Below are positions 2 through 64,000 of a DNA stretch of 64,000 nt, piece after piece; position 1 is the first letter of the stretch; each line of letters begins with the position of its first letter. The position numbers were made by a program, and so were the translations under genes. Below the pieces are notes generated by a model. It made no database searches, was not told where the DNA came from, and saw only the letters and a list, made by a program, of their open reading frames with translations. Location: IMG/VR virus record IMGVR_UViG_3300035670_000148. The stretch is one strand, 5' to 3'. The stretch comes from an uncultured virus (IMG/VR IMGVR_UViG_3300035670_000148) (taxonomy: Duplodnaviria > Heunggongvirae > Uroviricota > Caudoviricetes).

Positions 2-3000
2 AATGTAAGTGGTACTTTCTTAGACCCCGAATATCAGTTTCTTGGCGGTGACTTTGATAAGAAAATGGAGCGTGTTGAAAATCTAGCCTCAGATGTCTCC
101 GATACATTTTCATCATTATTTTCAGGTGAATTTGGCTCTTTCTCCCAAAAAGCAACGAGCTTAATTAAAGGACTTGGCACGAGGTCACGTGCTTTAAGTG
201 AAAAAGTCCGCATGGATCAAGCTAAAAAGGGAATGGGGCAGAGTCTTGGCGGGTCTGCCTTAGGGGGTGCAGGCAAGTTCTTAATGGGTGGGGCTGCAAT
301 AGGAGGCGGACTTTTAGCTGCTGTCTCGGCTATACAATCCGTTGAAGAGAAAATGAAGGGGGTCAATAAAGAGCTCATTCAAACATATGGTGTGACCGAC
401 TTGATGACGGATAGCAGTCAAGACTTCGGCAAACAGATTATGGCTGTGAATAAGGAGTTGTCTGACCCCGACTTCGCAAATACTTTGGGAGTCACCCTTG
501 AGGAATCTCGACAGCTCGTGGGAAACTTACAAGAAGTAGGTCTTAATATCCGCACAATGAAGGGAGACATGAGTGGCTTGAAAGACCTCACTGTAGGGTT
601 TCAAGCAGCCTCTAAGATGTTGGGTATTGAGTTCTCAGATGTCGCCGGTGTCGCTCAGACCTTTAGGGAAGAACTAGGTGTCGCAGTCTCAGAGGGTCAT
701 CTACTAAATAGAATGGCGAAGGAGTTTGGCAAGATTAGAGACATGGCGGCTCAATCGAGCTTCTCCACAAATCGGTTCTTCCAAACCATACAGAGCTTGA
801 CCGATGGTATTGGCTCGATGAATGTCCGTATCGGTGAAGCAGGTAAGCTCTTCATCAGCCTCTCCAAAGTTCTCGGACCGAAAGCGGCTCAAGAGTTTGC
901 CTCAGGTCTGTTGGGAGGCTTCAAGTCTGAGGGCGTAGTTGACCGCTATAGGAGGCTTCTCCTTACAGGTAAGGGGAAGATGCAGTCAACTTTCAAGCGC
1001 AGCTCAAAAGCGACTGACAAGGATTTCATGGAGAACTTAACAGACGCTCAGAAAAAAATAATAGAAAAAGCAGGCGGTTTAAAGAAGATCAAGACTGAGG
1101 CAGACCTTAAAAGAGTTATGGGTGAACTTCGTAGAGGTACCGAGGGAGGGACAGGCGTTGCAAACCAACTCATGCGAGCCTTCAATTTAAGAAAAGCCGC
1201 ACGTGGTAATGAGTCAGATATGGTCAAAGCAATGGGGGACTTGGACTTAAGCGGTACCATGAGCGCGCAGATGCAACAGATTTATGCGTTCTTAGGTCAG
1301 AAGGGTTTTGAAGGAATCAGCGCAGTTCAGTTGGAGGCTTTGGCAAACTACACAGGTAAGAGTATTGAAGAACTGCAACAACTCAAGATGTTGGACTTCG
1401 CATATCAAGATGACTTTAAGAAGTCTCAAGAAATATTAGCTGCGGGTAAGGGGAAAAGTGACGACCAACTGATGGCAGAATTGAAAGCTGCGGGTATTGA
1501 AAATATTAAAGTTAAGGGTGGGAAACTTGTCTCTGAATCAGGTGACTTGATTTCTTCAATAGAAGACTACATCCAAGCTCAAGGAGCGGAAATAGACGCT
1601 ACAGGTGCTTATCAGATAGACCAATTATCGCTTTTGGCAGAGGTTAAGAATGCGACTTTAACTTCTGCCGACATGATCAATAACCACTTAGGGGCGCTCC
1701 TCACTAAAATATATGGTCCTGTGGATTTCTTGACAGGGTGGCTTACTAAAGATGACGCAGATGCGAAGAAAGCAAGAGAAGAAAGACGACTTGTTTCTGA
1801 ACAAATAGGGGCAGAAACAGAGCAGAGAAGAACCTCTCTTATGGAGAAAGAACAGAAGTTAAGAGATTTTGCGGATACTGAAAAGAAGAGGATTTCGGGG
1901 ATAAAAGACCCGAAAGAACGAGCCAAAGAAGTTGCCAAAAGTAATTTAGAGATAGAGAAACAGAAGTCAGATATTGAAAAAGAGAAAGCACAACTGCGTC
2001 TTTTGGAGAAACAACAAGAAACATTAAACTCCTCGGAGGGAATGGATTTAAGTGGTCCGAATATTAAAGAGTACTCGGCAGAGATGGCGAAGAGTTCCCT
2101 ATCTAGAACGAAATCGGGTCGTAAATCTCTAGATATACTATCGGGTGAGGGTTCTGGTGCATTAGCCGCAGTCGCAAGAGTCTTAGGTTTGGGTGAGGGC
2201 TCTTCAGGGCAAGGAGTCATGTCACAGATTTTTGATAAGGGTATTACAGAGGAACAAAAAAGTCAGTTAAAAGCGATGGGGCTTGATGTAGATTTAGCCA
2301 AGTTAGCCTCTGAAACAAAGTTCACTCCACAAGGCACAACTAGCTCAGGTATAGATGTTACAAAAGACCTAACCCGCCTCAATATAAGTGAGGCTGGGGG
2401 GGCTCCTGTAATTAGTCAGTTAGGCACTAAAACTACTTCTTGGGATGCCTCTACATATGGAAGAGGCGGAATCGCTAGAAAAGAATCTACCATGAAGTCA
2501 GAGTCTGCTGTTTTTAGTGACCTAAATCTAGAAGAGGATATAAAGCGTTCCGAAGAACAACAACTACGCTTAAATGAAATCGCAAAAATATTAGAGGATC
2601 AAACTATCACCGACGCAGATAGAAGAAAATATACAGATGAACAAGCTAATATTGAAGCTGAAGTTTTGGCGAAAAATAAGAAATACCAAGACGCGACAGG
2701 TAAGACCTTTTCAGACGCAATTTTAAGTGCCGAGAAACAAAAGTTAAATACTCAAATAGGAAACCTATTGGGTGCAGGTGTCACTCTAGGTGATGATAGA
2801 AATGCCAATCGCGCAATCATTGAGAGACTACGAACAGCACCGAATAGTGAGTCCCTTCTAGCTGAGTTGCCAAAATACTTCGCGACAGATATGAAGTTTG
2901 ACCCTTATGATGACAGACCCATCTTACTCAGAAAGGGGACAGCCACGATTGGAACTTCAACCGATTCGGCTTATTTCAGAGATAATACTGCGGGGGGTTC

Positions 3001-3115
3001 TCCCGTAGGTGGTGTGGGTTCAATGAATATCCATATCACCATCAATGGGGGCGATGAGAATAAGGTGTTCAGAACAGTACAAGACGCAATTCGTAGAAAT
3101 AGGGAGGCGACATGA
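2..3115 (+). CDS. Tail tape measure protein (5'-truncated by the window edge)
   Basis: The frame of ORF 65..3115 is open back to base 2 (NVSGTFLDPEYQFLGGDFDKKM). Long Ala/Gly-rich helical and coiled-coil protein ending in a typical 'MNIHITINGG' tail, immediately upstream of baseplate hub genes. Confidence 0.65.
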   Translation, partial: NVSGTFLDPEYQFLGGDFDKKMERVENLASDVSDTFSSLFSGEFGSFSQKATSLIKGLGTRSRALSEKVRMDQAKKGMGQSLGGSALGGAGKFLMGGAAIGGGLLAAVSAIQSVEEKMKGVNKELIQTYGVTDLMTDSSQDFGKQIMAVNKELSDPDFANTLGVTLEESRQLVGNLQEVGLNIRTMKGDMSGLKDLTVGFQAASKMLGIEFSDVAGVAQTFREELGVAVSEGHLLNRMAKEFGKIRDMAAQSSFSTNRFFQTIQSLTDGIGSMNVRIGEAGKLFISLSKVLGPKAAQEFASGLLGGFKSEGVVDRYRRLLLTGKGKMQSTFKRSSKATDKDFMENLTDAQKKIIEKAGGLKKIKTEADLKRVMGELRRGTEGGTGVANQLMRAFNLRKAARGNESDMVKAMGDLDLSGTMSAQMQQIYAFLGQKGFEGISAVQLEALANYTGKSIEELQQLKMLDFAYQDDFKKSQEILAAGKGKSDDQLMAELKAAGIENIKVKGGKLVSESGDLISSIEDYIQAQGAEIDATGAYQIDQLSLLAEVKNATLTSADMINNHLGALLTKIYGPVDFLTGWLTKDDADAKKAREERRLVSEQIGAETEQRRTSLMEKEQKLRDFADTEKKRISGIKDPKERAKEVAKSNLEIEKQKSDIEKEKAQLRLLEKQQETLNSSEGMDLSGPNIKEYSAEMAKSSLSRTKSGRKSLDILSGEGSGALAAVARVLGLGEGSSGQGVMSQIFDKGITEEQKSQLKAMGLDVDLAKLASETKFTPQGTTSSGIDVTKDLTRLNISEAGGAPVISQLGTKTTSWDASTYGRGGIARKESTMKSESAVFSDLNLEEDIKRSEEQQLRLNEIAKILEDQTITDADRRKYTDEQANIEAEVLAKNKKYQDATGKTFSDAILSAEKQKLNTQIGNLLGAGVTLGDDRNANRAIIERLRTAPNSESLLAELPKYFATDMKFDPYDDRPILLRKGTATIGTSTDSAYFRDNTAGGSPVGGVGSMNIHITINGGDENKVFRTVQDAIRRNREAT

Positions 3116-11762: not shown

Positions 11763-12914
11763 ATGCGTTCAAGAAATAAGAGAGCCTTTTCTAGCCAGCC
11801 CTTAAGGACAAGAAGGGATTATGGCGAGAGGTCTGCAACTACTTTTATGGAGTTTGACAGAGATTCTGATGGGAGAGTATCTCCCTTAGAATGGGAGGAG
11901 GGCTTTGGTCTTATTGACTCTGAGGGGACAGGTTTTATTTCTGAAGGTCAATGGGAGAATAACAACTTTAAGAAGTTGGATTCCGACAATGACGGAGTTG
12001 TTTCTCTTCAAGATTGGCTTGATGGATTTGATGAGTTAGATTCAGATAAAGATGGTTATCTGAATGAACAAGACTTCTACACTCGCGAGGCTTTTGATAG
12101 GAGAGCCGAAAGTGAAATGTGGGCTGACAACTCTGTTGGTAGAAATACAGGGTACTCTAGTCATCTAAATAAAGTGGGTCCCGGTAACTCTGAGAAAGAA
12201 ATACTAGCCGATTTCTTAGAGGATGATATGGGTCTTGTGGATGATATGGGTCTTGTGGATGATGTGGGTCTTGTGGATGATGTGGGTCTTGTGGATGAGT
12301 TACATGACTTAAATCAATTAGATCAGTTCGAGTCTGAGGAAGATGAGGATGATTTTGACTCTGAGGATGATATGGATGATTTTGACTCGGTAGATGAGTT
12401 CGACGAGTTTGATGAGATAGATAACATGGTAAGGTCTGCGAGAGTCTTAGGGAGAATCGGACCTGATGGTGAGAAGAGGTCTCCCAAAGAGGTTGCAGAG
12501 TCTTTTGAGAACTTAAAGAGCAACATGAGTGCTAAGAGTCTAGAGAGCTGGGAGAAATATGAGGGTGCTATGACTCCTAGTGGGTTAGATAAAGCAAGGG
12601 TGAAGGAAAACTCAAAGAAAGCGAACCATCATAGCGGTGGTTCTTACATGAGCCTCAAGAATCTCCGTCAAATGGAACTCTATATAGACACCATACGGGG
12701 ACAGGTTCATAGCGGAGAGGAACTAGACGATTGGGTTGAGGATAAGATTTCTCATGCTCACGCCATACTGAGTGACTTATTTGGTTATTTCGGTTTTGGT
12801 GATGGTTTCCATGAGCATACGGAGGAGGGTACTTTTGATTACGAGGGGAATCGTTTGGCAGAAGAGATGAGGGCACATTTCGGAGATGATGAAGTTGATG
12901 TGGATGAGTTTTAA
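11763..12914 (+). CDS. Four-EF-hand acidic protein, probably virion-associated
   Basis: EF-hand loops DRDSDGRVSPLE, DSEGTGFISEGQ, DSDNDGVVSLQD, DSDKDGYLNEQD; Asp/Glu-rich middle; SD AAGGAG. Confidence 0.75.
   Translation: MRSRNKRAFSSQPLRTRRDYGERSATTFMEFDRDSDGRVSPLEWEEGFGLIDSEGTGFISEGQWENNNFKKLDSDNDGVVSLQDWLDGFDELDSDKDGYLNEQDFYTREAFDRRAESEMWADNSVGRNTGYSSHLNKVGPGNSEKEILADFLEDDMGLVDDMGLVDDVGLVDDVGLVDELHDLNQLDQFESEEDEDDFDSEDDMDDFDSVDEFDEFDEIDNMVRSARVLGRIGPDGEKRSPKEVAESFENLKSNMSAKSLESWEKYEGAMTPSGLDKARVKENSKKANHHSGGSYMSLKNLRQMELYIDTIRGQVHSGEELDDWVEDKISHAHAILSDLFGYFGFGDGFHEHTEEGTFDYEGNRLAEEMRAHFGDDEVDVDEF
12221..12298 (+). repeat. 18-bp coding tandem repeat, about 4.3 copies (DD[M/V]GLV)
   Basis: GGATGAT[A/G]TGGGTCTTGT repeated at 12221, 12239, 12257 and 12275. 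Confidence 0.95.
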
Positions 12915-13874: not shown

Positions 13875-13927
13875 TTGATATTATTTTTATTTCTCCTTCT
13901 GTAGATGTTTTGCAAAAGGAGAACAAG

Positions 13928-14686
13928 ATGTTATCTCAGCTAGAGTCATTAAATCTTAGAATCGCGCGTTTGGAAAGACTTCATCGTGAGGCAAACTTCC
14001 ATGACCGCTCTGCGGCAGGGAAGGCTTATCTTTTTGATATGGGTCTTACAAGAGATAAGGTCAGAAGTGGCGAAGCCGCCATGCTTTACAAGATAGACCC
14101 TCAGATGAATCAGTCCAAGTTTTATGAGATGCTTATTGTTTCTCGTAGAAGGGGCGTTTTCACACTTATTAAGAAGTGGGGTCGTCTTGGACCTAACTCC
14201 AAGACTATTGAGGCAGACTTTCCCTCATTAGAGGAGGCGCGTAGAGAACTCGCTCAGACTTTACGGAGCAAGTTGAGCAGAGGTTATATTTCTACTTACT
14301 CTCCAGACCACAGAAATACAAATGGAGCAAAACTCCCTGTGGGTCAATATCCTGTCGGATTGGAAAGTAATCCCGGACTTTGGAGAAATCAGAAGGTTAT
14401 TTCTTGCAAGCCCGCTTTACAGAAGTTGCTTGTCCAGCTCACGAAATCTCAGAAGCAGGTCATGCTCGGTAAGTTTGGCAGAACTCTTATTTCTTCCCTA
14501 CAGGAAGCCTTAGCATTAACGAGTGAGCTAGATGAGTCTATGGCTCGTATCGTTTATGAAAAGATTAGAGCACCCCTCAATCGAATCAAGGGAGAGGGTC
14601 GTCATGCGCCCGACCCCGATAAGATCGTAAAAGAGCTTAATTCACTTCGGAGATATTTAGAGCTTCAGCTTTCTACTTGTATGTAA
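13928..14686 (+). CDS. WGR-domain protein
   Basis: 'NQSKFYEMLIV...FTLIKKWGRLG...F.SLEEARREL...KLSRGY' is the WGR domain signature. Start placed at ATG 13928 behind SD AAGGAG. Confidence 0.8.
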   Translation: MLSQLESLNLRIARLERLHREANFHDRSAAGKAYLFDMGLTRDKVRSGEAAMLYKIDPQMNQSKFYEMLIVSRRRGVFTLIKKWGRLGPNSKTIEADFPSLEEARRELAQTLRSKLSRGYISTYSPDHRNTNGAKLPVGQYPVGLESNPGLWRNQKVISCKPALQKLLVQLTKSQKQVMLGKFGRTLISSLQEALALTSELDESMARIVYEKIRAPLNRIKGEGRHAPDPDKIVKELNSLRRYLELQLSTCM

Positions 14687-19096: not shown

Positions 19097-20905
19097 ATGA
19101 CTATGTCCAAGTATTTCTACAAAGTAGCCCTTAGAAAAGGGCAAAAAATTTATAAAAACTACGACAAAGAATTTGATAGTAGAGACTCTTTCGTCTCTGC
19201 CGCGCGCGTTGATTACCTCCGTCTTATTGATACACTTTCTCGCAAATATAACGACCCTGATTTATCCGTATCTGATGTCGTTACCCAACTTTTGGGAGAG
19301 AAGGAACTCAGTACTTTTATAGCAAGAAATATAATCAGTACTCACTATTCAGACTCTGAGCGGAGTTCAAAGGTGTCTAGTGTTTTAGGGGTGACTGCCT
19401 CTGCCCTCATTGACGCAAGCAAGCGAGAAACCGCACGCTCTGTTGTAGAGGGACTTCTTGTTTCTAAGTACAACAAAGATGTGGTGACTCCCCTTCAAGA
19501 GAACATCCTTCGTGCGCTTCCTCCTCAGATTGTTAAAGAACTCCCACAAAACATTATTATTGATGCCGATGCAGACGGGACAATCACCCAAATAAACGAT
19601 AAGCTAGTAAATAAGGGAAGGACACTACTAGAAAAAGCTAATCGTATGAAGAGACTTATAGAGGAATATAATGAAGTCGTTGATCAAGTTAAAGCCGACT
19701 TGAAGTCTCCTCAAGAGATTATCAGAATCTCTGCTATTCTCACTTCTATCATCATGGAAACAGGTATTCGCCCCGGCAGACCCGGACAAAAGGCTGTCGT
19801 AAAAGATAGTGAGGTGGAGACATTCGGAGTCTCTACCTTCACACCCAAGCACATCAAATTTCTAACTGATGTCGCTGAATTAGAGTTCGTAGGCAAGCGA
19901 GGTAAGACAAACTTAGCCGAGTTGAAAGACGCTGAGGTAATCAGTCTTCTTCAAGACTATGTGGATAAAGCAAAAGGTAGGAGTGCAGACCAACCACAAG
20001 TCTTTAGAGATAAACATGGAACTCTCTATCGTTATGAGACTCTCATGTGGTACATGAAGAATAAACTCAAAGGATTCACCCCTTCGGACTTCAGACGACT
20101 AAAAGCAAGTCGAGAAGCATACGCGCAGTTAAAACAAGAATATGCCTTCTTAAAGGAACAAATCGAAAAAGATGTAGATGTGACAGCAGAGAATGCAAAA
20201 GAGAAAGTTGCGAGTCTTGTCGCTTCCAGCATTAACTACTCTATCAAGCAAGCAAGAAAAGCCTTAAGCCATGAGCCTAGCTCCGCAGCTATCTACGCTT
20301 ATGTGACACCAAGTATTGTAATGCAGTTCATCAATAATAATATGAAAGATACTTTTGAAGAGTCTATCCTTCAAGGCGAATCAAAGCTCAGTTTTGATGT
20401 TCAGAAATTCATGGCAGATATAAAATCTAAAACGCCTGCTCAGGCAGAGACTCCCGTTGAGAAACAACCTACTTTGAGAGATGTTCAGAAGGAAACTGTA
20501 GCAGTGATGAAGACTCAAGTTGCTGACGCTACGAGTCGTGCTGAAGCGGTTCTCTCTCAGCCAGACGCTCCCGCTCCTTCTCCCGCTCCTTCTCCCGATC
20601 CTGTATTACCTGAGTCATCACCAAAAAATATCAGAGCACAAATCAAAGAACTTGAAGAACTCCTAGGGTATGGTCGTAAAGACATTAACGATGTTAAGGA
20701 TAGCCTTAATGACGCATATGACTTAAATGAATACTTGGAACGCTTAAAAGAGCTCTATGAAGATAAGCTAATAGAGGATGAGAAGCGAAGGTCTAGACTG
20801 AAAGCCCCACCAGCGCCACCTGCCCCTCCTCCTCCTCCAGCCCCTCCCGCCTCGACAGAGGAAGACGATGATGAGCTGGATTTAGAGGAATTTGATGAGG
20901 GGTAA
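19097..20905 (+). CDS. Type IB DNA topoisomerase with N-terminal extension and Pro-rich/acidic tail
   Basis: Collinear with the poxvirus/bacterial TopIB catalytic domain: 'IMETGIRPG' (Arg), 'TFGVSTFTPKHI', 'LEFVGKRG' (Lys), 'FTPSDFRR' (Arg), 'ALSHEPSSAAIYAYV' (His, Tyr). Confidence 0.85.
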   Translation: MTMSKYFYKVALRKGQKIYKNYDKEFDSRDSFVSAARVDYLRLIDTLSRKYNDPDLSVSDVVTQLLGEKELSTFIARNIISTHYSDSERSSKVSSVLGVTASALIDASKRETARSVVEGLLVSKYNKDVVTPLQENILRALPPQIVKELPQNIIIDADADGTITQINDKLVNKGRTLLEKANRMKRLIEEYNEVVDQVKADLKSPQEIIRISAILTSIIMETGIRPGRPGQKAVVKDSEVETFGVSTFTPKHIKFLTDVAELEFVGKRGKTNLAELKDAEVISLLQDYVDKAKGRSADQPQVFRDKHGTLYRYETLMWYMKNKLKGFTPSDFRRLKASREAYAQLKQEYAFLKEQIEKDVDVTAENAKEKVASLVASSINYSIKQARKALSHEPSSAAIYAYVTPSIVMQFINNNMKDTFEESILQGESKLSFDVQKFMADIKSKTPAQAETPVEKQPTLRDVQKETVAVMKTQVADATSRAEAVLSQPDAPAPSPAPSPDPVLPESSPKNIRAQIKELEELLGYGRKDINDVKDSLNDAYDLNEYLERLKELYEDKLIEDEKRRSRLKAPPAPPAPPPPPAPPASTEEDDDELDLEEFDEG

Positions 20906-57684: not shown

Positions 57685-57946
57685 TGCTTTGATTTTATTG
57701 ATTTTTATTGGGGGTTCTATTGGACTTCTTACCCATCATGCTGAGAGCGAGATAGAGATTGTTATTTGCAAAGGTTCTGAAGCACCTTTTCTGTTTATAG
57801 GTGAGAAAAGAGACTACAAGTACTTACTAAATCAGGGTATTTTGACTGAGCTTACTGTGTGTCAGACAAAAAAGATGACTCACGATACTTGGTATCAGAC
57901 GCGAAGTGCGCTCAACCGCTCTTTTTTGAATACTAGGGAGAAATAA
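57674..57946 (+). CDS. Small protein with N-terminal hydrophobic anchor/signal
   Basis: 'NALILLIFIGGSIGLL'; SD AGGAG. Confidence 0.55.
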   Translation: MMSNALILLIFIGGSIGLLTHHAESEIEIVICKGSEAPFLFIGEKRDYKYLLNQGILTELTVCQTKKMTHDTWYQTRSALNRSFLNTREK

Positions 57947-59141
57947 TCTCTTCTAGTTTAGATTCAACTTCGGGTGTGTATTTACTATGCTGATTTGAGA
58001 GTTCGGCTAACTCGTCAATCTCGTCTTTCTTAGAAAGACCGAGCATATGAAGAAGACTACGAACAGGTCCAGACTTCATTACTCCATTTGCGATTTGCTT
58101 AAGAACCCACCAAACGCCTTGAAGAGGCATAAGCAAAAGAACTTTTGGAGGGATAGCTAAGAGCTTACCCCCTGCTTGATAAACTTGAGAGACTAATAAC
58201 CAAACCACGAGAACTGCACCTAAACCGATAACAATCACATTGTGAGGGATATTATCGTATATTGCTTGACATAAGAACTTAAACGCACTATAAATGTTGT
58301 CTAGTGCCCCACCTAAGACAAATGCTAGTCCTTTCCCTAAGTTCTTAAGTAAAAACCATAGAGCTTCAAGAGCGGATTCTACTGCACTTGGAACTTCTGG
58401 AAGGAGTTTCCCAATCCACCCTGTTATAACACCACCTACCCAAGCCATCGCATCGCTTCCTAAGATAGTCTTAATAAGACCCCAAGCAGCTGGTCCAATC
58501 CATTCAATAATATTTGTCCAAACCCACCCTACACCATCTAGAATCATAGTTGAAACGGCAGGTATCGCGGTCTTTTTTAGAGAAGCCGTTTTGAATTTCT
58601 TAGGGTCTGCCATCAGTATATAAACCACTTTAGGGTCTACACCTAAGAGTTGTGCGATTTTATCTGGGTCCTTTTGATTAGCCCCGATTTTCCCAACAAT
58701 CTCAGATTGTTGGGCGAAGGATAATCCGGATAAGCGATTGTCTAATAACTTATCAAAAGGATTTTTTTCGGTGTTTTTGGCTAATTTTTCTACTACTTTC
58801 ATATAATCTAAGGTGTTTTTAATCCCCATCTGTTTATGTATCAGAGAGAAACCTTTAACAGCTTCTCCAGATAAAGGGGGTAGCTTTGCCACCTCATCTT
58901 GAACAACCGCAGTCACGACTGCTTCTTTAAGTTGTTCTGAAGATGCCGTTCTTATGGTGTCTCTAGGGTAAGAGCTACGAACAATTTGTGAGGCGACTCG
59001 CACTTCGTGCGCGCTAAGATATCTCCCTCGAATCAAACTCATCCTCATTTTATCGTAGTCAAGTGGGGTTCTTGGAATCGCCACATTTAGACCTCTCTGT
59101 GAGAGGTATGCACACCTAGTCTGAATATCTGCCAAACTCAT
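57933..59141 (-). CDS. Membrane protein, divergent member of the 59205/61309 family
   Basis: Helical module (KNPFDKLLD...IAQLLGVDPK) followed by long Trp-rich amphipathic/hydrophobic helices and a clear TM 'VIVIGLGAVLVVWLLV'; RVA/RTA/KTA motifs. Confidence 0.7.
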   Translation of the reverse strand: MSLADIQTRCAYLSQRGLNVAIPRTPLDYDKMRMSLIRGRYLSAHEVRVASQIVRSSYPRDTIRTASSEQLKEAVVTAVVQDEVAKLPPLSGEAVKGFSLIHKQMGIKNTLDYMKVVEKLAKNTEKNPFDKLLDNRLSGLSFAQQSEIVGKIGANQKDPDKIAQLLGVDPKVVYILMADPKKFKTASLKKTAIPAVSTMILDGVGWVWTNIIEWIGPAAWGLIKTILGSDAMAWVGGVITGWIGKLLPEVPSAVESALEALWFLLKNLGKGLAFVLGGALDNIYSAFKFLCQAIYDNIPHNVIVIGLGAVLVVWLLVSQVYQAGGKLLAIPPKVLLLMPLQGVWWVLKQIANGVMKSGPVRSLLHMLGLSKKDEIDELAELSNQHSKYTPEVESKLEEIISP

Positions 59142-59218
59142 AACGGGCTCCTTTTTTTTCTTTAATACTTTTGTTCTCTCATTAAAGAAAAAAAGGAGCC
59201 CGTTATGAGTTTGGCAGA
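59128..59218. repeat. 38/39-bp inverted repeat with a 14-bp spacer, containing the SD and first codons of two divergent genes
   Basis: TCTGCCAAACTCATAACGGGCTCC(T8)CTTTAAT (59128-59166) / ATTAAAG(A7)GGAGCCCGTTATGAGTTTGGCAGA (59181-59218). Confidence 0.95.
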
Positions 59219-61307
59219 GCTAGAGAAAGTCTCTAAAAGCACCGCAGAGGAAAATCAAAAAAGCCTCATACAGATGATAAAAGATGCAGTTAGAAGTACT
59301 TCTTTGAGTACTTCTCAGATCAACTTAATAAAAGATACAGCTACTGAAGTGGGGATTGTTAACTTTACAGATATTCTTAAGATGAAAGGACCAGCTCCCA
59401 AGAATAATCTAGAGAAATTCATGATGTTGAAAATGCAAGGTATCTCAGACCCTGCGACAGTCGCTCGCATGATAACTGAAATACTTGCAGCTCAAGACCA
59501 AGAACAGCTGGCTGCGGCACTAGAAGTCCCGTCTGCAAAGTTGCAGGCACTACTACCCGGACCAACGATAAAAGAAATTCTGACTAGCCTCACAAAGAAG
59601 TTCTTAGTCACTTTCTTTATCTCCTTCATCACTTCTTTCCTTTTTAAGTTCTTTCAAGCATCCTCCGCCTCTAAGATTTTAGAGTTTTGCACGAATGCTA
59701 AAACAGCTTCGGGGAAGAAATTTAAGGTCAGAGTTGCGTGGGACGCTGACTATGCGGTGGATACCCACACTGCGCCAATGATGGCAAAGAAAGTTGAAAA
59801 AGTTATACAGGAACGAGTCATTAAAGATATTCAAATACAGCAACAGGCAGACGCAATGAACATCTATTCGGGGGATAAAGTACTAGAAGTTCCCTCAAAC
59901 CAAATTGAGTATAACGCCAGCACAGGGGAATATAAAATGTGGGTCTATAACGACCCCGCTAAGAATGTCCCTGCTGAAATAACAGAGGTGGGTGGCGTGG
60001 TGAACGCAAAGCCAACTTCCGCACGTTACCTTAACATCGGTGAGGTTGAGGGTAAGGTAGTTACAGACAAAGAATCGGGTAGGCACATTTGGCAGCCCAA
60101 AGAGGGTGATACGGTGCGTATGTTTAAGAACGAGGATGGTAAATGGGTTCGTTTTAAGGATTTAAGCGAAGAAGAGCAAGCTAGATTAGGAGATCGGGAT
60201 TACGACCCCTCACAGGCGGGTGTTGCTCTACATAAGAAGATATTATGTGGAACTATCAATTGGGCTACATATAGCTTCTTAGGGAGTATTTCTAAGTTCT
60301 TCGTAACTGTTGCGAAAGGGTTCGTAGCTGAATTGGGGAAAACAAGCGTACTTTACGGATTCTTAGCTTCAGCCGCAACTGCGATACTCTTATTCGGATC
60401 AAGCATAGTTAAAGGTATTTTCAAGGTCTTTTCTTTTGGGAAGGACTTGGTAGTAAATGGAGTTAAAGCACTTTGGAACTTAGCCACAAAAAGAGGTAAG
60501 TCAGCTTCAATCCCAAGAAGGAAACTTGCTCTAGAGGAAGCCGTAAACCCCAAAGAGGTGATTGACGAGACTTCCAACACAATTATGGGTGTCGTGGGAG
60601 AAAAAGTCAAAGAGGTTCAGAAATTCTTAGGTTCTAGTTCGCTCACAGCCATGAGAGACTTGGCAGCTAAAGCAGGTATGTCTTCTTTCAAAGAGTTGTC
60701 TAAAGGAGAAGAACCCGTACCCACAAACCCTCTAGAGAAATTGATTGTTGAAAAGCTCAAGAGAATATCCTCTGCGAAAGAGAAGATATTATTTCTAGAG
60801 GGTATTCATAAGGCTTCCTCTAAGGAGGAACTTAGTAGTGTCTTAGAGATAGACCCTGCAAAGTTAGAGTCTTTTTTCGGAGATGAGACAAAGACAATAA
60901 AAAGGACTATCGTTATCTCACTAGGTATTATAAGCATAGCCTTCTTGTTGGGTGCGTTTATCCATGTGGTAATGACGACACCGATTTTAACAGGTGCTTG
61001 GTTAACTCTAAAATCTTCTTTGATGCCTTTAGTGAACTTCTTACCTGTCGCTACAAACATGACGGCGACAGAGTTTTATAAGATGTTGGCTATTGGGGCG
61101 GCTAAGTCTGCCTTAATACAGACTACGATTATCGGAATTGTTATGTATGGCCCATCGTGGATAAGAAAGAGCTTATCCGCAATAGGTTCTTGGGTGAAAC
61201 AATCTATTATTGGTATATGGGACAAAATAAAAGCACCTTTTAGAGAGGCTTCTCAAATATCTCCTGAAAGAGCTTTACTCAACATACTTAGTTACAGAGG
61301 AGTCTAA
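59205..61307 (+). CDS. Multi-pass membrane protein, two tandem copies of a helical+TM module, first copy with a Cys-bracketed insert
   Basis: Internal repeat (aa ~1-440 vs ~445-700); hydrophobic segments 'FLVTFFISFITSFLFKFF', 'VLYGFLASAATAILLFG', 'IVISLGIISIAFLLGAFIHV'. Confidence 0.75.
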   Translation: MSLAELEKVSKSTAEENQKSLIQMIKDAVRSTSLSTSQINLIKDTATEVGIVNFTDILKMKGPAPKNNLEKFMMLKMQGISDPATVARMITEILAAQDQEQLAAALEVPSAKLQALLPGPTIKEILTSLTKKFLVTFFISFITSFLFKFFQASSASKILEFCTNAKTASGKKFKVRVAWDADYAVDTHTAPMMAKKVEKVIQERVIKDIQIQQQADAMNIYSGDKVLEVPSNQIEYNASTGEYKMWVYNDPAKNVPAEITEVGGVVNAKPTSARYLNIGEVEGKVVTDKESGRHIWQPKEGDTVRMFKNEDGKWVRFKDLSEEEQARLGDRDYDPSQAGVALHKKILCGTINWATYSFLGSISKFFVTVAKGFVAELGKTSVLYGFLASAATAILLFGSSIVKGIFKVFSFGKDLVVNGVKALWNLATKRGKSASIPRRKLALEEAVNPKEVIDETSNTIMGVVGEKVKEVQKFLGSSSLTAMRDLAAKAGMSSFKELSKGEEPVPTNPLEKLIVEKLKRISSAKEKILFLEGIHKASSKEELSSVLEIDPAKLESFFGDETKTIKRTIVISLGIISIAFLLGAFIHVVMTTPILTGAWLTLKSSLMPLVNFLPVATNMTATEFYKMLAIGAAKSALIQTTIIGIVMYGPSWIRKSLSAIGSWVKQSIIGIWDKIKAPFREASQISPERALLNILSYRGV

Positions 61308-61308
61308 A

Positions 61309-64000
61309 ATGGAAGAGACTGATTTAAAGTCAACTGTGGATAGTTCATTGGCCGCTAACCAAAAGTCTTTGATTCAATCAATCAAAGACGCGGTGCGCGA
61401 CACCTCTCTTAATGACTCTCAGTTAGCTGCAATTAGAGATATGGCAGCTAAAGTCGGTATTAAGTCATTTAAGGATGTAGTCTCTGCAAATAAAATACCT
61501 CCTAAGACTAAACTTGAAAAGTATATGCTCTTACAGATGGAGAAGTTAGGGACACCTGCCAAGATTGCAACTTTCATAAATGATGTGGTGAGTTCTAAGA
61601 CACAAGAAGAACTAGCAAAAGCCCTAGATTTACCTCCTGAGGATTTGGAAAAAATCCTACCGACTCCAACCATCTCAGAAATATTTACGAGTCTTTTCAA
61701 GAAGTTCCTCGTGACCTTCTTTATTTCTTTCTGTTTCTCGTTCATGTATCAGTTTGTGAGTAAGCTAGAGCTAGTTAAAAAGGCAATGGAAGGGTGTCAT
61801 AAATTTGTGAAGTTTGGTTCTCAACACAAGATTAAGATGGCGAGAATCGCTCGGCTTATAAAAAAAGCTGAGGGCTTTACTAGTCCAGAAAGACCTCGTA
61901 TAAATTTCACAAAAGTACCCAAAGCACAAATGCTAGATATGCAAGTTTCTGAGAACCCTGCTCTTTTAGACAGAGACACAATTAGGGAAATAAATGTAAG
62001 ATTGCAGGACTCTAGCAAGTCACTTTCATTGACTGCTGTAGCGGTAGATGAACGAGTACAATTCCTTGATAATGAGGTCTCATTTGCGCGTGATCGGTTG
62101 TTAAATGTTGCCAAAAACTCACCCGATGCGTTGCCCTTAGCTAGAGAAGAGTTTAACTCGCTTTTATCTAAGGTTGAACAGGCTAAAGAGGTACAAAAGA
62201 AAATACAAGAAACTCGTGAATTGCTTGAGGCGGCTTCTACTCCAAGAGTTACCCCTGATTTAAATCAACTAAGAGTTGAATTAGTGAATGGCGATTTGGC
62301 GGACAGGTTGAACCAGATTAATGCGAGTACGAAATATCTAGATAGAATAACTCAGCAAGCTCAAGTTGACAGCTTCCATATTCAGGTATCTGACCAAAAC
62401 ATAGGCGGAACAGTAAGCTACGAGGGTCTAAGTGACTCTATGAAGAGAAAGGTAGAACTTAAAATAGAAACTGCTCTAATAGAGGCACAGAAATCCCAGA
62501 AAGATCTACTTGAAGTCAGAGATAAAATCCAAAATTACCAACAACAATTACTAGAACAAATACAAAGCCGCAATCAAGCGGGTATTTCTAGCACTACGGG
62601 TACTCAAGAATATGTGAAGGTTGTTAAAGAGCTTCAGGAAGCTCAAGCAGCTGTAGATAAGAGCACACAGCAACTAGAAATATTGCAAGAGGCTTCAAGG
62701 AGACCTAGTCTCAAAATTTACAACGACATAAATGAACGTCTTTTGAGAGAAATACAAGACAACAAGCAAGTCGGAGGTAGTGTAGGTCTTACAGTAGAAC
62801 AAGATTTTGAAACGGCTCAGAGAGCTATTGACCCTACGGATACAGAGAGAGGTTGGAAATTCGTAGACAGGAGTGAGCAGAAAAGATGGCTGAAAGATAT
62901 TTATGACCAACAGGATACTTTGGAGGATGCAAGAAAAACAATAGAAAAGAGTATTGCGCGCGCAGATAAGCAACTCGCAGAGCTTGAGAAAATGAAGAAC
63001 GCTCCGAATGTGCATCCCGCAGATGCTAAGAGTGTAGACGAACTGATAAACCAAACAAGAGAAAAACAGAGGGTAATGACGGAGACATTAGGGGATATTC
63101 AAGAACAAGAAGGATACTATCGGCAGTTGGCAACCAAACCTTCTATTGCGGGTGTGCGTGACCATGTAAAAGATTTCCAGCAAGTTATACAGGAGACAAA
63201 TCAAGAGCTTCAGAGTTTTAATGCCGAAAGACCGCTTGAAAAGGCTAGAGAGATTATTCATTCAGCTATCGGTAGACGAAATGCGGAGATATTTCAGCAA
63301 ATCCTTCAAGAAGATGTCAAAAGACATAATTGGCTTAATGAACTAAAGACGAAAGACCCTACTCTATATGCAGAGGCACTCGGCTTAGAGGATAGCTATA
63401 TATTAGCTTTTGACCAAGCACAGAAAATAATTGGTGACGACCCTAAGGTTTGGGCACTCGTGTTTGAGCAACACCCTGAATTAGACCCCCTACAATATAG
63501 TATTAGAGAAAACTTCGGTACAGGTACGCCTGAAATAAATATCAATGAGTTGAGTGAGCTATATCAGGATGCACAAGAACAAGTATATGACGGAGAAATT
63601 CCGACAATTAAGAATGTAAAGAAGGTCGAAGACCAGATGACAGAGGTAAAAGATAAGGCATCTTACAATATTTTGTGCGGAGCTGCACAATGGGCAGGCT
63701 TTAGCTTTTTGAAAACATTTACAACCTTTATTACCGGACTCGCGGGTGGACTCATTAAAGAATATATATTACAAGGGGCGCTTCCCGCGTTCATCACAGC
63801 CTGCGCGGTATCTGTCATTATTGTGGGCAAAGGGATTATTTCTAGCATATTTGGTTTTATCACGAAGGGGGTTGGTTTTGTGAAGAATATGGTGTCTAGC
63901 TTATGGCAAAAGATTTTAGGTAAGCGTAAAAAGTTAGCCTCATCAAAAGCACTCCTTAAGCAAGCCAAAGCTAGAAATAAATATGCGGCGGCGGCGATTC
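61309..64000 (+). CDS. Membrane protein paralog of 59205..61307 with a long coiled-coil insert (3'-truncated; absent from the ORF track)
   Basis: Translated by hand from ATG 61309 (SD GAGGAG): MEETDLKSTVDSSLAANQKSLIQSIKDAVRDTSL...KKFLVTFFISFCFSF...; no stop codon before the window end. Confidence 0.85.
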   Translation, partial: MEETDLKSTVDSSLAANQKSLIQSIKDAVRDTSLNDSQLAAIRDMAAKVGIKSFKDVVSANKIPPKTKLEKYMLLQMEKLGTPAKIATFINDVVSSKTQEELAKALDLPPEDLEKILPTPTISEIFTSLFKKFLVTFFISFCFSFMYQFVSKLELVKKAMEGCHKFVKFGSQHKIKMARIARLIKKAEGFTSPERPRINFTKVPKAQMLDMQVSENPALLDRDTIREINVRLQDSSKSLSLTAVAVDERVQFLDNEVSFARDRLLNVAKNSPDALPLAREEFNSLLSKVEQAKEVQKKIQETRELLEAASTPRVTPDLNQLRVELVNGDLADRLNQINASTKYLDRITQQAQVDSFHIQVSDQNIGGTVSYEGLSDSMKRKVELKIETALIEAQKSQKDLLEVRDKIQNYQQQLLEQIQSRNQAGISSTTGTQEYVKVVKELQEAQAAVDKSTQQLEILQEASRRPSLKIYNDINERLLREIQDNKQVGGSVGLTVEQDFETAQRAIDPTDTERGWKFVDRSEQKRWLKDIYDQQDTLEDARKTIEKSIARADKQLAELEKMKNAPNVHPADAKSVDELINQTREKQRVMTETLGDIQEQEGYYRQLATKPSIAGVRDHVKDFQQVIQETNQELQSFNAERPLEKAREIIHSAIGRRNAEIFQQILQEDVKRHNWLNELKTKDPTLYAEALGLEDSYILAFDQAQKIIGDDPKVWALVFEQHPELDPLQYSIRENFGTGTPEININELSELYQDAQEQVYDGEIPTIKNVKKVEDQMTEVKDKASYNILCGAAQWAGFSFLKTFTTFITGLAGGLIKEYILQGALPAFITACAVSVIIVGKGIISSIFGFITKGVGFVKNMVSSLWQKILGKRKKLASSKALLKQAKARNKYAAAAI

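Follow-up and report, generated by a model that had tools for sequence, protein, structure and literature searches.

The described systems closest to the locus studied here are the ejection proteins of phiKZ-like phages. As far as the available parts of the reports go, phiKZ injects a family of protease-cut paralogs (bioRxiv 10.1101/2024.03.24.586471), and N-terminal pieces of 111-254 amino acids (aa) are removed from phiKZ-like head cargo by the prohead protease (PMC10052503). In SPN3US, the head protein gp47 is cut by the protease, has a predicted transmembrane helix and a variable gene position, and is inferred to be ejected, and gp53 and gp54 (paralog family A) have identical N-termini at 34% identity (PMC5694885). 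The capsid cargo proteins crAss001 gp45/gp46 and T7 gp14-16, with predicted membrane helices, are expected to provide a DNA entry channel (available part of PMC10172136). The present work concerns the genes A, B and C of a 64,000-nucleotide stretch of DNA (the window) from the uncultured virus IMGVR_UViG_3300035670_000148, a jumbo myophage. These genes, and probably a fourth one called D, form one paralog family of three or four members in this phage.

The family is real, narrowly distributed and without a library match, and its design of candidate cut sites, a cysteine (Cys) pair and a variable insert is unusual. In the best reading, its closest functional counterparts would by analogy be the head cargo paralogs of phiKZ and SPN3US, which are cut by a protease, but it lies outside PF12699. 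Judging from the sequence, there is about an even chance that its members are membrane proteins packaged in the head, cut by a protease and ejected, with a variable host-facing domain closed by a disulfide that would also tie the cut N-terminal piece. We infer the disulfide, the cleavage and the virion location of the A, B and C proteins from the patterns described below.

The scaffold and its cysteine-bounded inserts

Each paralog consists of one or two units, in which a helical H domain is followed by hydrophobic and amphipathic helices. The initial annotation had noticed that the open reading frames (ORFs) at 59205 (B) and 61309 (C) share an N-terminus that ends in a Cys, diverge completely and then rejoin in a common segment, and had read this as a conserved membrane-inserting scaffold. 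The shared parts were confirmed and a conserved hydrophobic scaffold is supported, with 44% identity over 179 aa (E 8e-40) for the N-termini and 34% over 91 aa (E 5e-12) for the parts after the insert. Full-length C (1167 aa, P0005) aligns with B end to end, the insert excepted. An internal duplication, the third paralog A and a 31-bp inverted repeat were found in addition. B and C are tandems of two units, each with an H domain of ~120 aa, and hhalign related H1 to H2 with a probability of 99% and the membrane parts M1 and M2 with 54% (E 1e-4). No relation between the hydrophobic part of A and that of B/C was detectable with hhalign. The features of the three genes are the following:

57933..59141, minus strand: paralog A, 402 aa, single unit (sequence comparison)
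within 57933..59141, minus strand: N-terminal 66 aa of A, with two conserved [KR]xA-S sites
58593-58943, minus strand: helical H domain of A (hhalign against the B/C H domains: probability 50-55%, E about 1e-4)
58566-58592, minus strand: KTAS/KTA joint of A (motif inspection)
after the KTAS/KTA joint, minus strand: Trp-rich amphipathic helices and one strongly hydrophobic helix of A
59128..59218, no strand assigned: inverted repeat in the A/B gap, perfect over 31 bp, with both ribosome-binding site regions and both first codons inside
59205..61307, plus strand: paralog B (P0001), 700 aa, two-unit, short insert
59205..59564, plus strand: helical domain H1 of B, aa 1-120 (homology to H2, probability 99%)
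59601..59657, plus strand: hydrophobic helix 1 of B, aa 133-151, candidate membrane helix of moderate hydrophobicity (Kyte-Doolittle 1.7)
59688..59690, plus strand: Cys162 of B, first of the pair (conservation across homologs)
59700..59738, plus strand: [KR]xA cluster of B, aa 166-178, after Cys162, candidate head-protease sites
59691..60245, plus strand: insert of B, 185 aa, with variable 181-225, conserved beta core 226-285 and variable 286-347
59734 (two runs), 59818, 59853 and 60105: loose ends of other-run contigs in the B insert
60246..60248, plus strand: Cys348 of B, second of the pair (conservation across homologs)
60246..60491, plus strand: amphipathic helix, hydrophobic helix 2 (aa 384-402) and amphipathic helix ending unit 1 of B
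60492..60530, plus strand: basic inter-unit linker of B, with a [KR]xA site at aa 440
60531..61250, plus strand: unit 2 of B, H2 (aa 443-560) and hydrophobic/amphipathic helices (aa 561-682), without insert and without Cys
61309..64000, plus strand: paralog C (P0005), first 897 of 1167 aa in the window, two-unit, long insert
61795..61797, plus strand: Cys163 of C, first of the pair
61798..63675, plus strand: insert of C, 626 aa, acidic, probably helical
61843-61869, plus strand: [KR]xA cluster of C, aa 179-187
63676..63678, plus strand: Cys790 of C, second of the pair
63925..63993, plus strand: basic linker of C, with [KR]xA sites at aa 875 and 884, preceding unit 2, itself outside the window

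In B, C and a further class called E, the first hydrophobic helix is followed by a loop in which a lineage-specific, fast-varying insert lies between two invariant cysteines (Cys1 and Cys2). A B+C profile run against 1.84 billion representatives returned 11 proteins, all of them family members, and within this search the B insert retrieved no protein outside the family. The set used for counting comprised 44 proteins, many of them near-copies: 27 full-length with an insert, 10 without insert and 7 fragments, which were left out. The expectation that homologs keep the Cys pair held, since both residues are present in 27/27 insert-bearing proteins, down to about 30% scaffold identity, and neither is present in 10/10 insert-less ones. 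Class E (P0016, P0017) has both of them on either side of a third type of insert, acidic and 259 and 225 aa long, and class D (P0018-P0020) has neither insert nor pair, only a short turn. Moreover, three distant single-unit homologs were found among 1997 related-phage proteins (E 7e-9, 3e-5 and 2e-5; best reversed-sequence control 0.34), and 0/3 have an insert and 0/3 the Cys pair.

The B and C inserts, of 185 and 626 aa, are free of Cys and unrelated (hhalign probability 0.3%), as had been stated from the letters alone, and homologs do carry more than one kind of insert, with three unrelated classes (B, C and E). A slight resemblance at the ends of the C and E inserts was dismissed, hhalign giving it 0.6%. 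The B insert had been called largely beta-rich, which in a low-confidence AlphaFold2 model holds for residues about 225-316, and about 190-218 are helical. The Gln content of the C insert is 10% in P0005 and 6% in P0007. In a tree of the C-terminal scaffold (15 rows), a starred branch sets each of the classes B, C, D and E apart from the other rows, with support 100/99, 99/98, 100/100 and 100/99. It was preferred to an N-terminal tree in which one row (P0018) was mis-cut and B was weakly supported (63/67). As every class falls on its own side of such a well-supported branch, the type of insert goes with the paralog lineage in this sample. The swappable, interchangeable payloads proposed initially are therefore not supported: no class has moved to another lineage, and variation is confined to blocks inside a class.

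Regarding the cysteines, 162 and 348 are indeed the only ones in the 700-aa B, and the window part of C has 142, 163, 790 and 832, two beyond the pair. One Cys of A (291) is conserved, and an extra Cys142 in helix 1 occurs in several B/C proteins. Cys makes up 0-1.2% of residues in the other structural ORFs of the window, and because of this rarity Cys-free inserts alone are weak evidence. In 6/6 insert-bearing proteins, hydropathy gave a candidate membrane helix before Cys1, the next one after Cys2 and none between; in P0016 the first helix is under the hydropathy threshold. Since no hydrophobic segment separates them, both Cys would be on one membrane face. In class D, ~16 residues with a predicted turn (low-confidence model) separate the corresponding positions (about 162 and 178), which suggests that the insert sits in the loop of a helical hairpin with the Cys at its base. 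One insert-less D protein, P0018, has a 170-aa C-terminal extension with six Cys (residues 520-690) after the C-terminal motif. P0001 (B), P0005 (C) and P0036 (D, 508 aa, without insert) are all recorded on 72968-nt contigs, and the contigs of other D members likewise match those of B/C members in length. Given these equally sized contigs, D is a probable fourth gene of the cluster and probably lies further along the window's own contig.

Database searches bore out the impression that no described family was involved: Pfam, PHROGs and NCBIfam gave nothing at curated cut-offs. PF12699 matched neither A, B nor the window part of C at E <= 0.05, nor 14 homologs/inserts at E <= 0.5. A sequence search of PDB returned 2 rows (E 0.17-0.18), and ESM Atlas gave two unnamed hits for B at 0.76, which is chance level, and none for the B insert. 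The AlphaFold2 models reached a mean predicted local distance difference test score of 37.6 for B and 43.3 for D (H domains alone about 60-74), at which the Cys-Cys distance is unreadable. Fold searches with these models gave background only (best Foldseek E 0.02 viral and 0.78 PDB; best VIA Z 7.3 and 6.3) and, the models being of low confidence, show neither a new nor a known fold. A complex prediction of B 1-168 with B 336-442 scored 0.02, evidence neither way.

The inserts are also the parts of the genes that differ most between strains. The identity of N-part, insert and C-part is 96/62/96% between P0001 and P0002, 99/67/99% between P0003 and P0004, and 94/75/93% between P0005 and P0006, in agreement with the earlier prediction of a hypervariable inter-Cys region. 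P0001 and P0002 differ at 32/45 and 30/62 positions in two insert blocks, at 9/60 in the beta core and at 22/515 outside the insert. P0002 and P0008 are near-alike in the same blocks (3/45 and 7/62 differ), yet residues 51-100 differ at 12/50, with the insert 94% and the N-part 84% identical. Thus, P0001, P0002 and P0008 show a mosaic, block-wise pattern of variation. In C, P0005 and P0006 differ at 161/598 positions in residues 196-789 and at 36/541 outside the insert.

Contigs of four other runs gave 12 loose ends, of which 10 are in inserts (9 places), these making up 41% of the length of the A, B and C genes together, and 2 at the A/B hairpin, from two runs. Two runs depart from the window sequence at 59734, right after the motif cluster, into the same alternative. 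Among listed differences, the residue was altered in 16/17 changed codons of the C insert (run X7) versus 2/9 of the B scaffold (run X6) (Fisher p 0.0004), a comparison that covers 36 of 40 listed differences (200 further ones being unlisted) and sets different genes from different runs and single contigs against each other. When codons near an indel were excluded, 7/8 were residue-altering in the C insert (p 0.015), and the four B insert codons in X6 were two altering and two not. These figures hint at diversifying selection on the inserts.

The gap between the divergent genes A and B measures 63 bp, and its inverted repeat has a DNA fold z of -14. Because this hairpin takes in both start codons, A and B begin with the same four residues, which recalls the identical N-termini of gp53 and gp54. 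At the equivalent A/B place, L001:8580-8685 holds a different, shorter hairpin (z -6). The hairpin could be a bidirectional regulatory element or a product of gene conversion.

The [KR]xA motif and the head protease

The motif [KR]xA recurs in the family after Cys1, in the inter-unit linker and near the C-terminus. In A, it flanks the H domain on both sides and is kept in the ortholog of locus L001. In 27/27 insert-bearing proteins, a loose [KR]xA occurs no more than 25 aa downstream of Cys1, and the equivalent loop of insert-less proteins has it in 0/10. Among eight family representatives, 23/37 motif hits are in the three joints, which hold 10% of residues (B 3/3).

The initial suggestion that the motifs after the first Cys resemble protease sites gained support from the excess of the motif in scaffold and protease genes of relatives. 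In LR745208.1, a scaffold-like gene located between the head protease and major capsid genes (both identified via PHROGs) has the strongest over-representation of [KR][TVILKQ]A among 531 genes (12 occurrences for 2.5 expected), with the head protease in 3rd place. The head protease of another relative is encoded at L081:12137-13582. This pattern was chosen after inspecting LR745208.1 and was fixed before three phages closer to the window were considered, in which the scaffold homolog ranks 2/261, 1/307 and 1/422 and the protease 10th, 4th and 4th. Scaffold and protease tails are standard head-protease substrates according to the available parts of PMC5694885 and PMC10052503. Since the motif is concentrated in precisely these proteins, [KR]xA is most likely the cut site of the clade. 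No K/R-x-A phage protease motif and no A-E family were found in the literature, covered mostly in its non-subscription part and supplements aside (the phage G tables, PMC12484599, could bear on this).

In these relatives, a common leader of ~25 aa, usually ending in [KR]xA, was observed in 27 proteins of G010 (L079-L097), 18 of G007 (L064-L078) and 10 of G002 (L050-L063). From its sequence, this leader is likely a capsid-targeting tag. Several of the leader-tagged proteins also have hydrophobic hairpins. The leader-bearing membrane proteins beside the A ortholog in G007 were considered as H-domain homologs and discarded (probability <3%, with controls up to 2%). L068:4962-6419 and L086:16047-17495 have a DUF3140-like N-terminal domain joined via [KR]xA linkers to an H domain and a hydrophobic hairpin. 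The same kind of N-terminal domain is fused to other sequences in G001, G003 and G008, whose proteins were rejected as family members because the H domain is absent.

Distribution and gene neighbourhood

Family scans of the window ORFs identified genes for a family A DNA polymerase (PolA), topoisomerase IB, a sheath initiator and baseplate J. The best phage match of the window baseplate protein is in LR745208.1, a 485-kb record, with 35% identity. The A/B/C cluster lies ~3 kb beyond a run of large tail/baseplate genes, and no small gene is present between A, B and C in the window. The ORF 65-3115 is a probable tape-measure gene (1016 aa, without Cys), and its LR745208.1 homolog has a weak PhageMin_Tail match (E 0.007, below the curated cut-off). 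It sits upstream of the tail genes; two small ones that resemble paralogs come next, along with probable genes for hub and spike, and homologs are present in LR745208.1. Further on, 11763-12914 encodes an acidic protein with several EF-hand repeats, and EF-hand-like low-complexity stretches are also visible in the scaffold homologs of G007 and G010. A WGR-domain protein is encoded at 13910-14686, with an N-terminal leader resembling the common cargo leader of related phages, and 19097-20905 encodes topoisomerase IB with a long acidic, proline-rich C-terminal tail.

The closer relative G002 (L030:1-9100) retains the window gene order from 48839 to about 57946 and has small leader-tagged genes at the place of A, B and C. 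This arrangement suggests that the place is a variable cargo island. In L001, the order A, B, C is retained with a divergent A, and its B is 47% identical; a distant A ortholog is found at L069:17816-18880 (E 8e-8).

Searches for the family locus gave none from viral_contigs or genome_contigs, and metagenome_contigs yielded L001 and L002 only; one search of viral_contigs reported a single relative but gave no locus for it. Genome_contigs searched with a neighbouring gene came out empty, no match came from cultured phage records, and none was listed among RNA data. By capsid protein, the nearest cultured relatives are Tunturi_5 (47%) and phage G (38%). A further protein search with the family alignment returned known B members only. 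Whole-family alignments against genome records gave 0/1 and 0/20, with a prefilter that missed homologs later found in G007 and G010.

Candidate roles of the family

If the proteins are head cargo, they would be packaged in the prohead, where the head protease would cut [KR]xA after Cys1, in the inter-unit linker and near the C-terminus. Under the oxidising conditions met by the virion, a Cys1-Cys2 disulfide could form at the base of the insert and retain the cut N-terminal piece. Reduction would release the N-terminal piece of H1 plus helix and leave the insert in place, because the candidate cut sites concentrate on the N-side of the insert. At infection, the ejected pieces would insert together into the host inner membrane, forming a mixed assembly that may help or shield DNA entry. 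The insert would face host components, which may drive its variation. The likeness to the phiKZ-like ejection proteins (SPN3US gp47 and gp53/gp54; phiKZ gp93/94/95/162/163) lies in paralogous head cargo and short-motif protease cuts, which are putative here. On the other hand, A, B and C have no PF12699 or other Pfam match, the motif is [KR]xA here and A-x-E there, and the two-unit membrane plan is combined with a Cys-bounded hypervariable insert, the latter not described in the available parts of those reports. The proteins also resemble T7 gp14-16 and crAss001 gp45/gp46 as cargo-type proteins with predicted membrane helices, and differ from them in belonging to a contractile-tail phage with its own tape-measure candidate, in the lack of a sequence match and in being accessory in the clade.

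Several points weigh against the head-cargo proposal. Since head assembly takes place in the cytoplasm, which is reducing, a disulfide could arise only afterwards. The Cys/insert link amounts to one evolutionary event, as there is a single tree split of D versus the rest. In the insert-less hairpin, positions ~162 and ~178 are asymmetric about the turn and do not imply that the Cys are adjacent. The joint count of 23/37 is no independent test because the zones were drawn after the motifs had been seen and the sequences are related, and bare [KR]xA shows no excess over the whole of B (7 found for 8.4 expected) or C (15 for 13.6). The stricter pattern is missing after Cys1 in 9/27 proteins (P0017 group and P0023). 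The motif code was assessed in relatives only, the head genes lying outside the window, and their mean identity to window ORFs is 41-50%. A profile of 55 leaders from three relatives matches none of A, B and C, its sole window match being ORF 13910 (E 0.02). Finally, the family was not found among the 3844 ORFs of LR745208.1 (0/3844) or in G002, and hence it is not a clade-wide core entry machine.

A distinctly less probable alternative, though one to be taken seriously, is that these are inner-membrane proteins of an ordinary kind, produced in the infected cell and inserted by the machinery of the host, with the H domains cytoplasmic and the insert periplasmic over a host-made disulfide, and with a role in superinfection exclusion, lysis timing or counter-defence. 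A helix-Cys-domain-Cys-helix order on one face is the normal plan of a periplasmic domain, and a Cys pair found only with the insert is explained equally well. Fast variation would suit a host- or phage-facing periplasmic domain too, A, B and C are without the cargo leader, and the family is accessory in the clade. In this alternative the basic clusters would be topology signals; nevertheless, the one after Cys1 would face outside, contrary to the positive-inside rule. The motif is likewise left unexplained, its third-position Ala being kept at several joints in A-E and in the three distant single-unit homologs, and in A it sets off the H domain and an N-terminal 66 aa in the manner of a propeptide. 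A tail-associated or tape-measure-derived origin, with the proteins in the tail tube or baseplate and the insert as a receptor-binding or length element, appears quite improbable. The cluster does lie close to the tail/baseplate genes, hypervariable host-facing domains are typical of fibres, and the family shares with tape-measure proteins amphipathic, Trp/Phe-spaced helices and hydrophobic segments, on which 4/14 queries gave weak PHROG tape-measure matches (E 0.0012-0.045). However, no Pfam tape-measure or fibre family matched, the separate candidate 65-3115 occupies the place of a tape-measure gene, between those for tail tube and baseplate hub, and 3-4 divergent paralogs located elsewhere, with repeated H domains, a Cys-bounded insert and [KR]xA joints, suit head cargo better.

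AB toxins and class I fusion proteins such as haemagglutinin start as precursors in which a basic cut site adjoins a Cys pair and a scaffold that inserts into membranes carries an inserted, variable head domain. This layout would be shared here, and a doubtful but conceivable reading is that the paralogs make up a hetero-oligomeric device for membrane entry, carried in the virion, where B, C and E would act like cleaved fusion proteins with a redox-latch disulfide and A and D would be headless scaffolds. The head protease would then cut beside the cysteine, and the inserted, diversifying head domain would read the host envelope. The family differs from both groups in showing no enzyme domain in family scans, in a cutter that would be the phage's own head protease and in an insert that would stay attached on its C-side, and no sequence or fold match to them was found, with poor models. 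The polymorphic AB-type effector put forward at first, with the scaffold as translocation module and the insert as an interchangeable toxic or enzymatic payload freed by reduction, seems the least probable reading of all. It has in its favour the cut site beside the Cys pair, three unrelated inserts in one scaffold and block-wise exchange between strains, as in P0002 and P0008. Even so, each insert class is confined to its own scaffold lineage with 1 change each (in the small sample of the 15-row tree), family scans gave no enzyme or toxin match for the inserts and no immunity-like neighbour was identified in the window, which ends within C. In addition, with cut sites on the N-side and not on the C-side the insert would keep its covalent link to the membrane portion, and there are members without an insert, probably encoded by the same genomes. 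It is also highly improbable that the two cysteines are conserved for other reasons than pairing together, such as helix packing, an inter-subunit bond with another paralog or acylation. No structure model, all of low confidence, places them together, and Cys291 of A and the extra Cys142 of B/C could pair between chains, but both Cys are gained or lost together with the insert, and inspection revealed no lipoprotein signal before Cys1 at position 162 (by the general lipobox rule).

If the inner-membrane alternative were true, this would still be an unannotated phage membrane protein family under strong diversifying pressure. If the disulfide and the cleavage of the head-cargo proposal are true, the family would represent a cleaved, disulfide-linked membrane protein design for which no phage precedent was found in the literature searched. 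For the passage of DNA and cargo across the host inner membrane by giant phages outside the phiKZ group, the family is a concrete candidate with mapped parts, namely putative cut sites, a Cys pair, natural insert-less controls and strain-variable domains, together with a testable [KR]xA protease code linked to membrane cargo.

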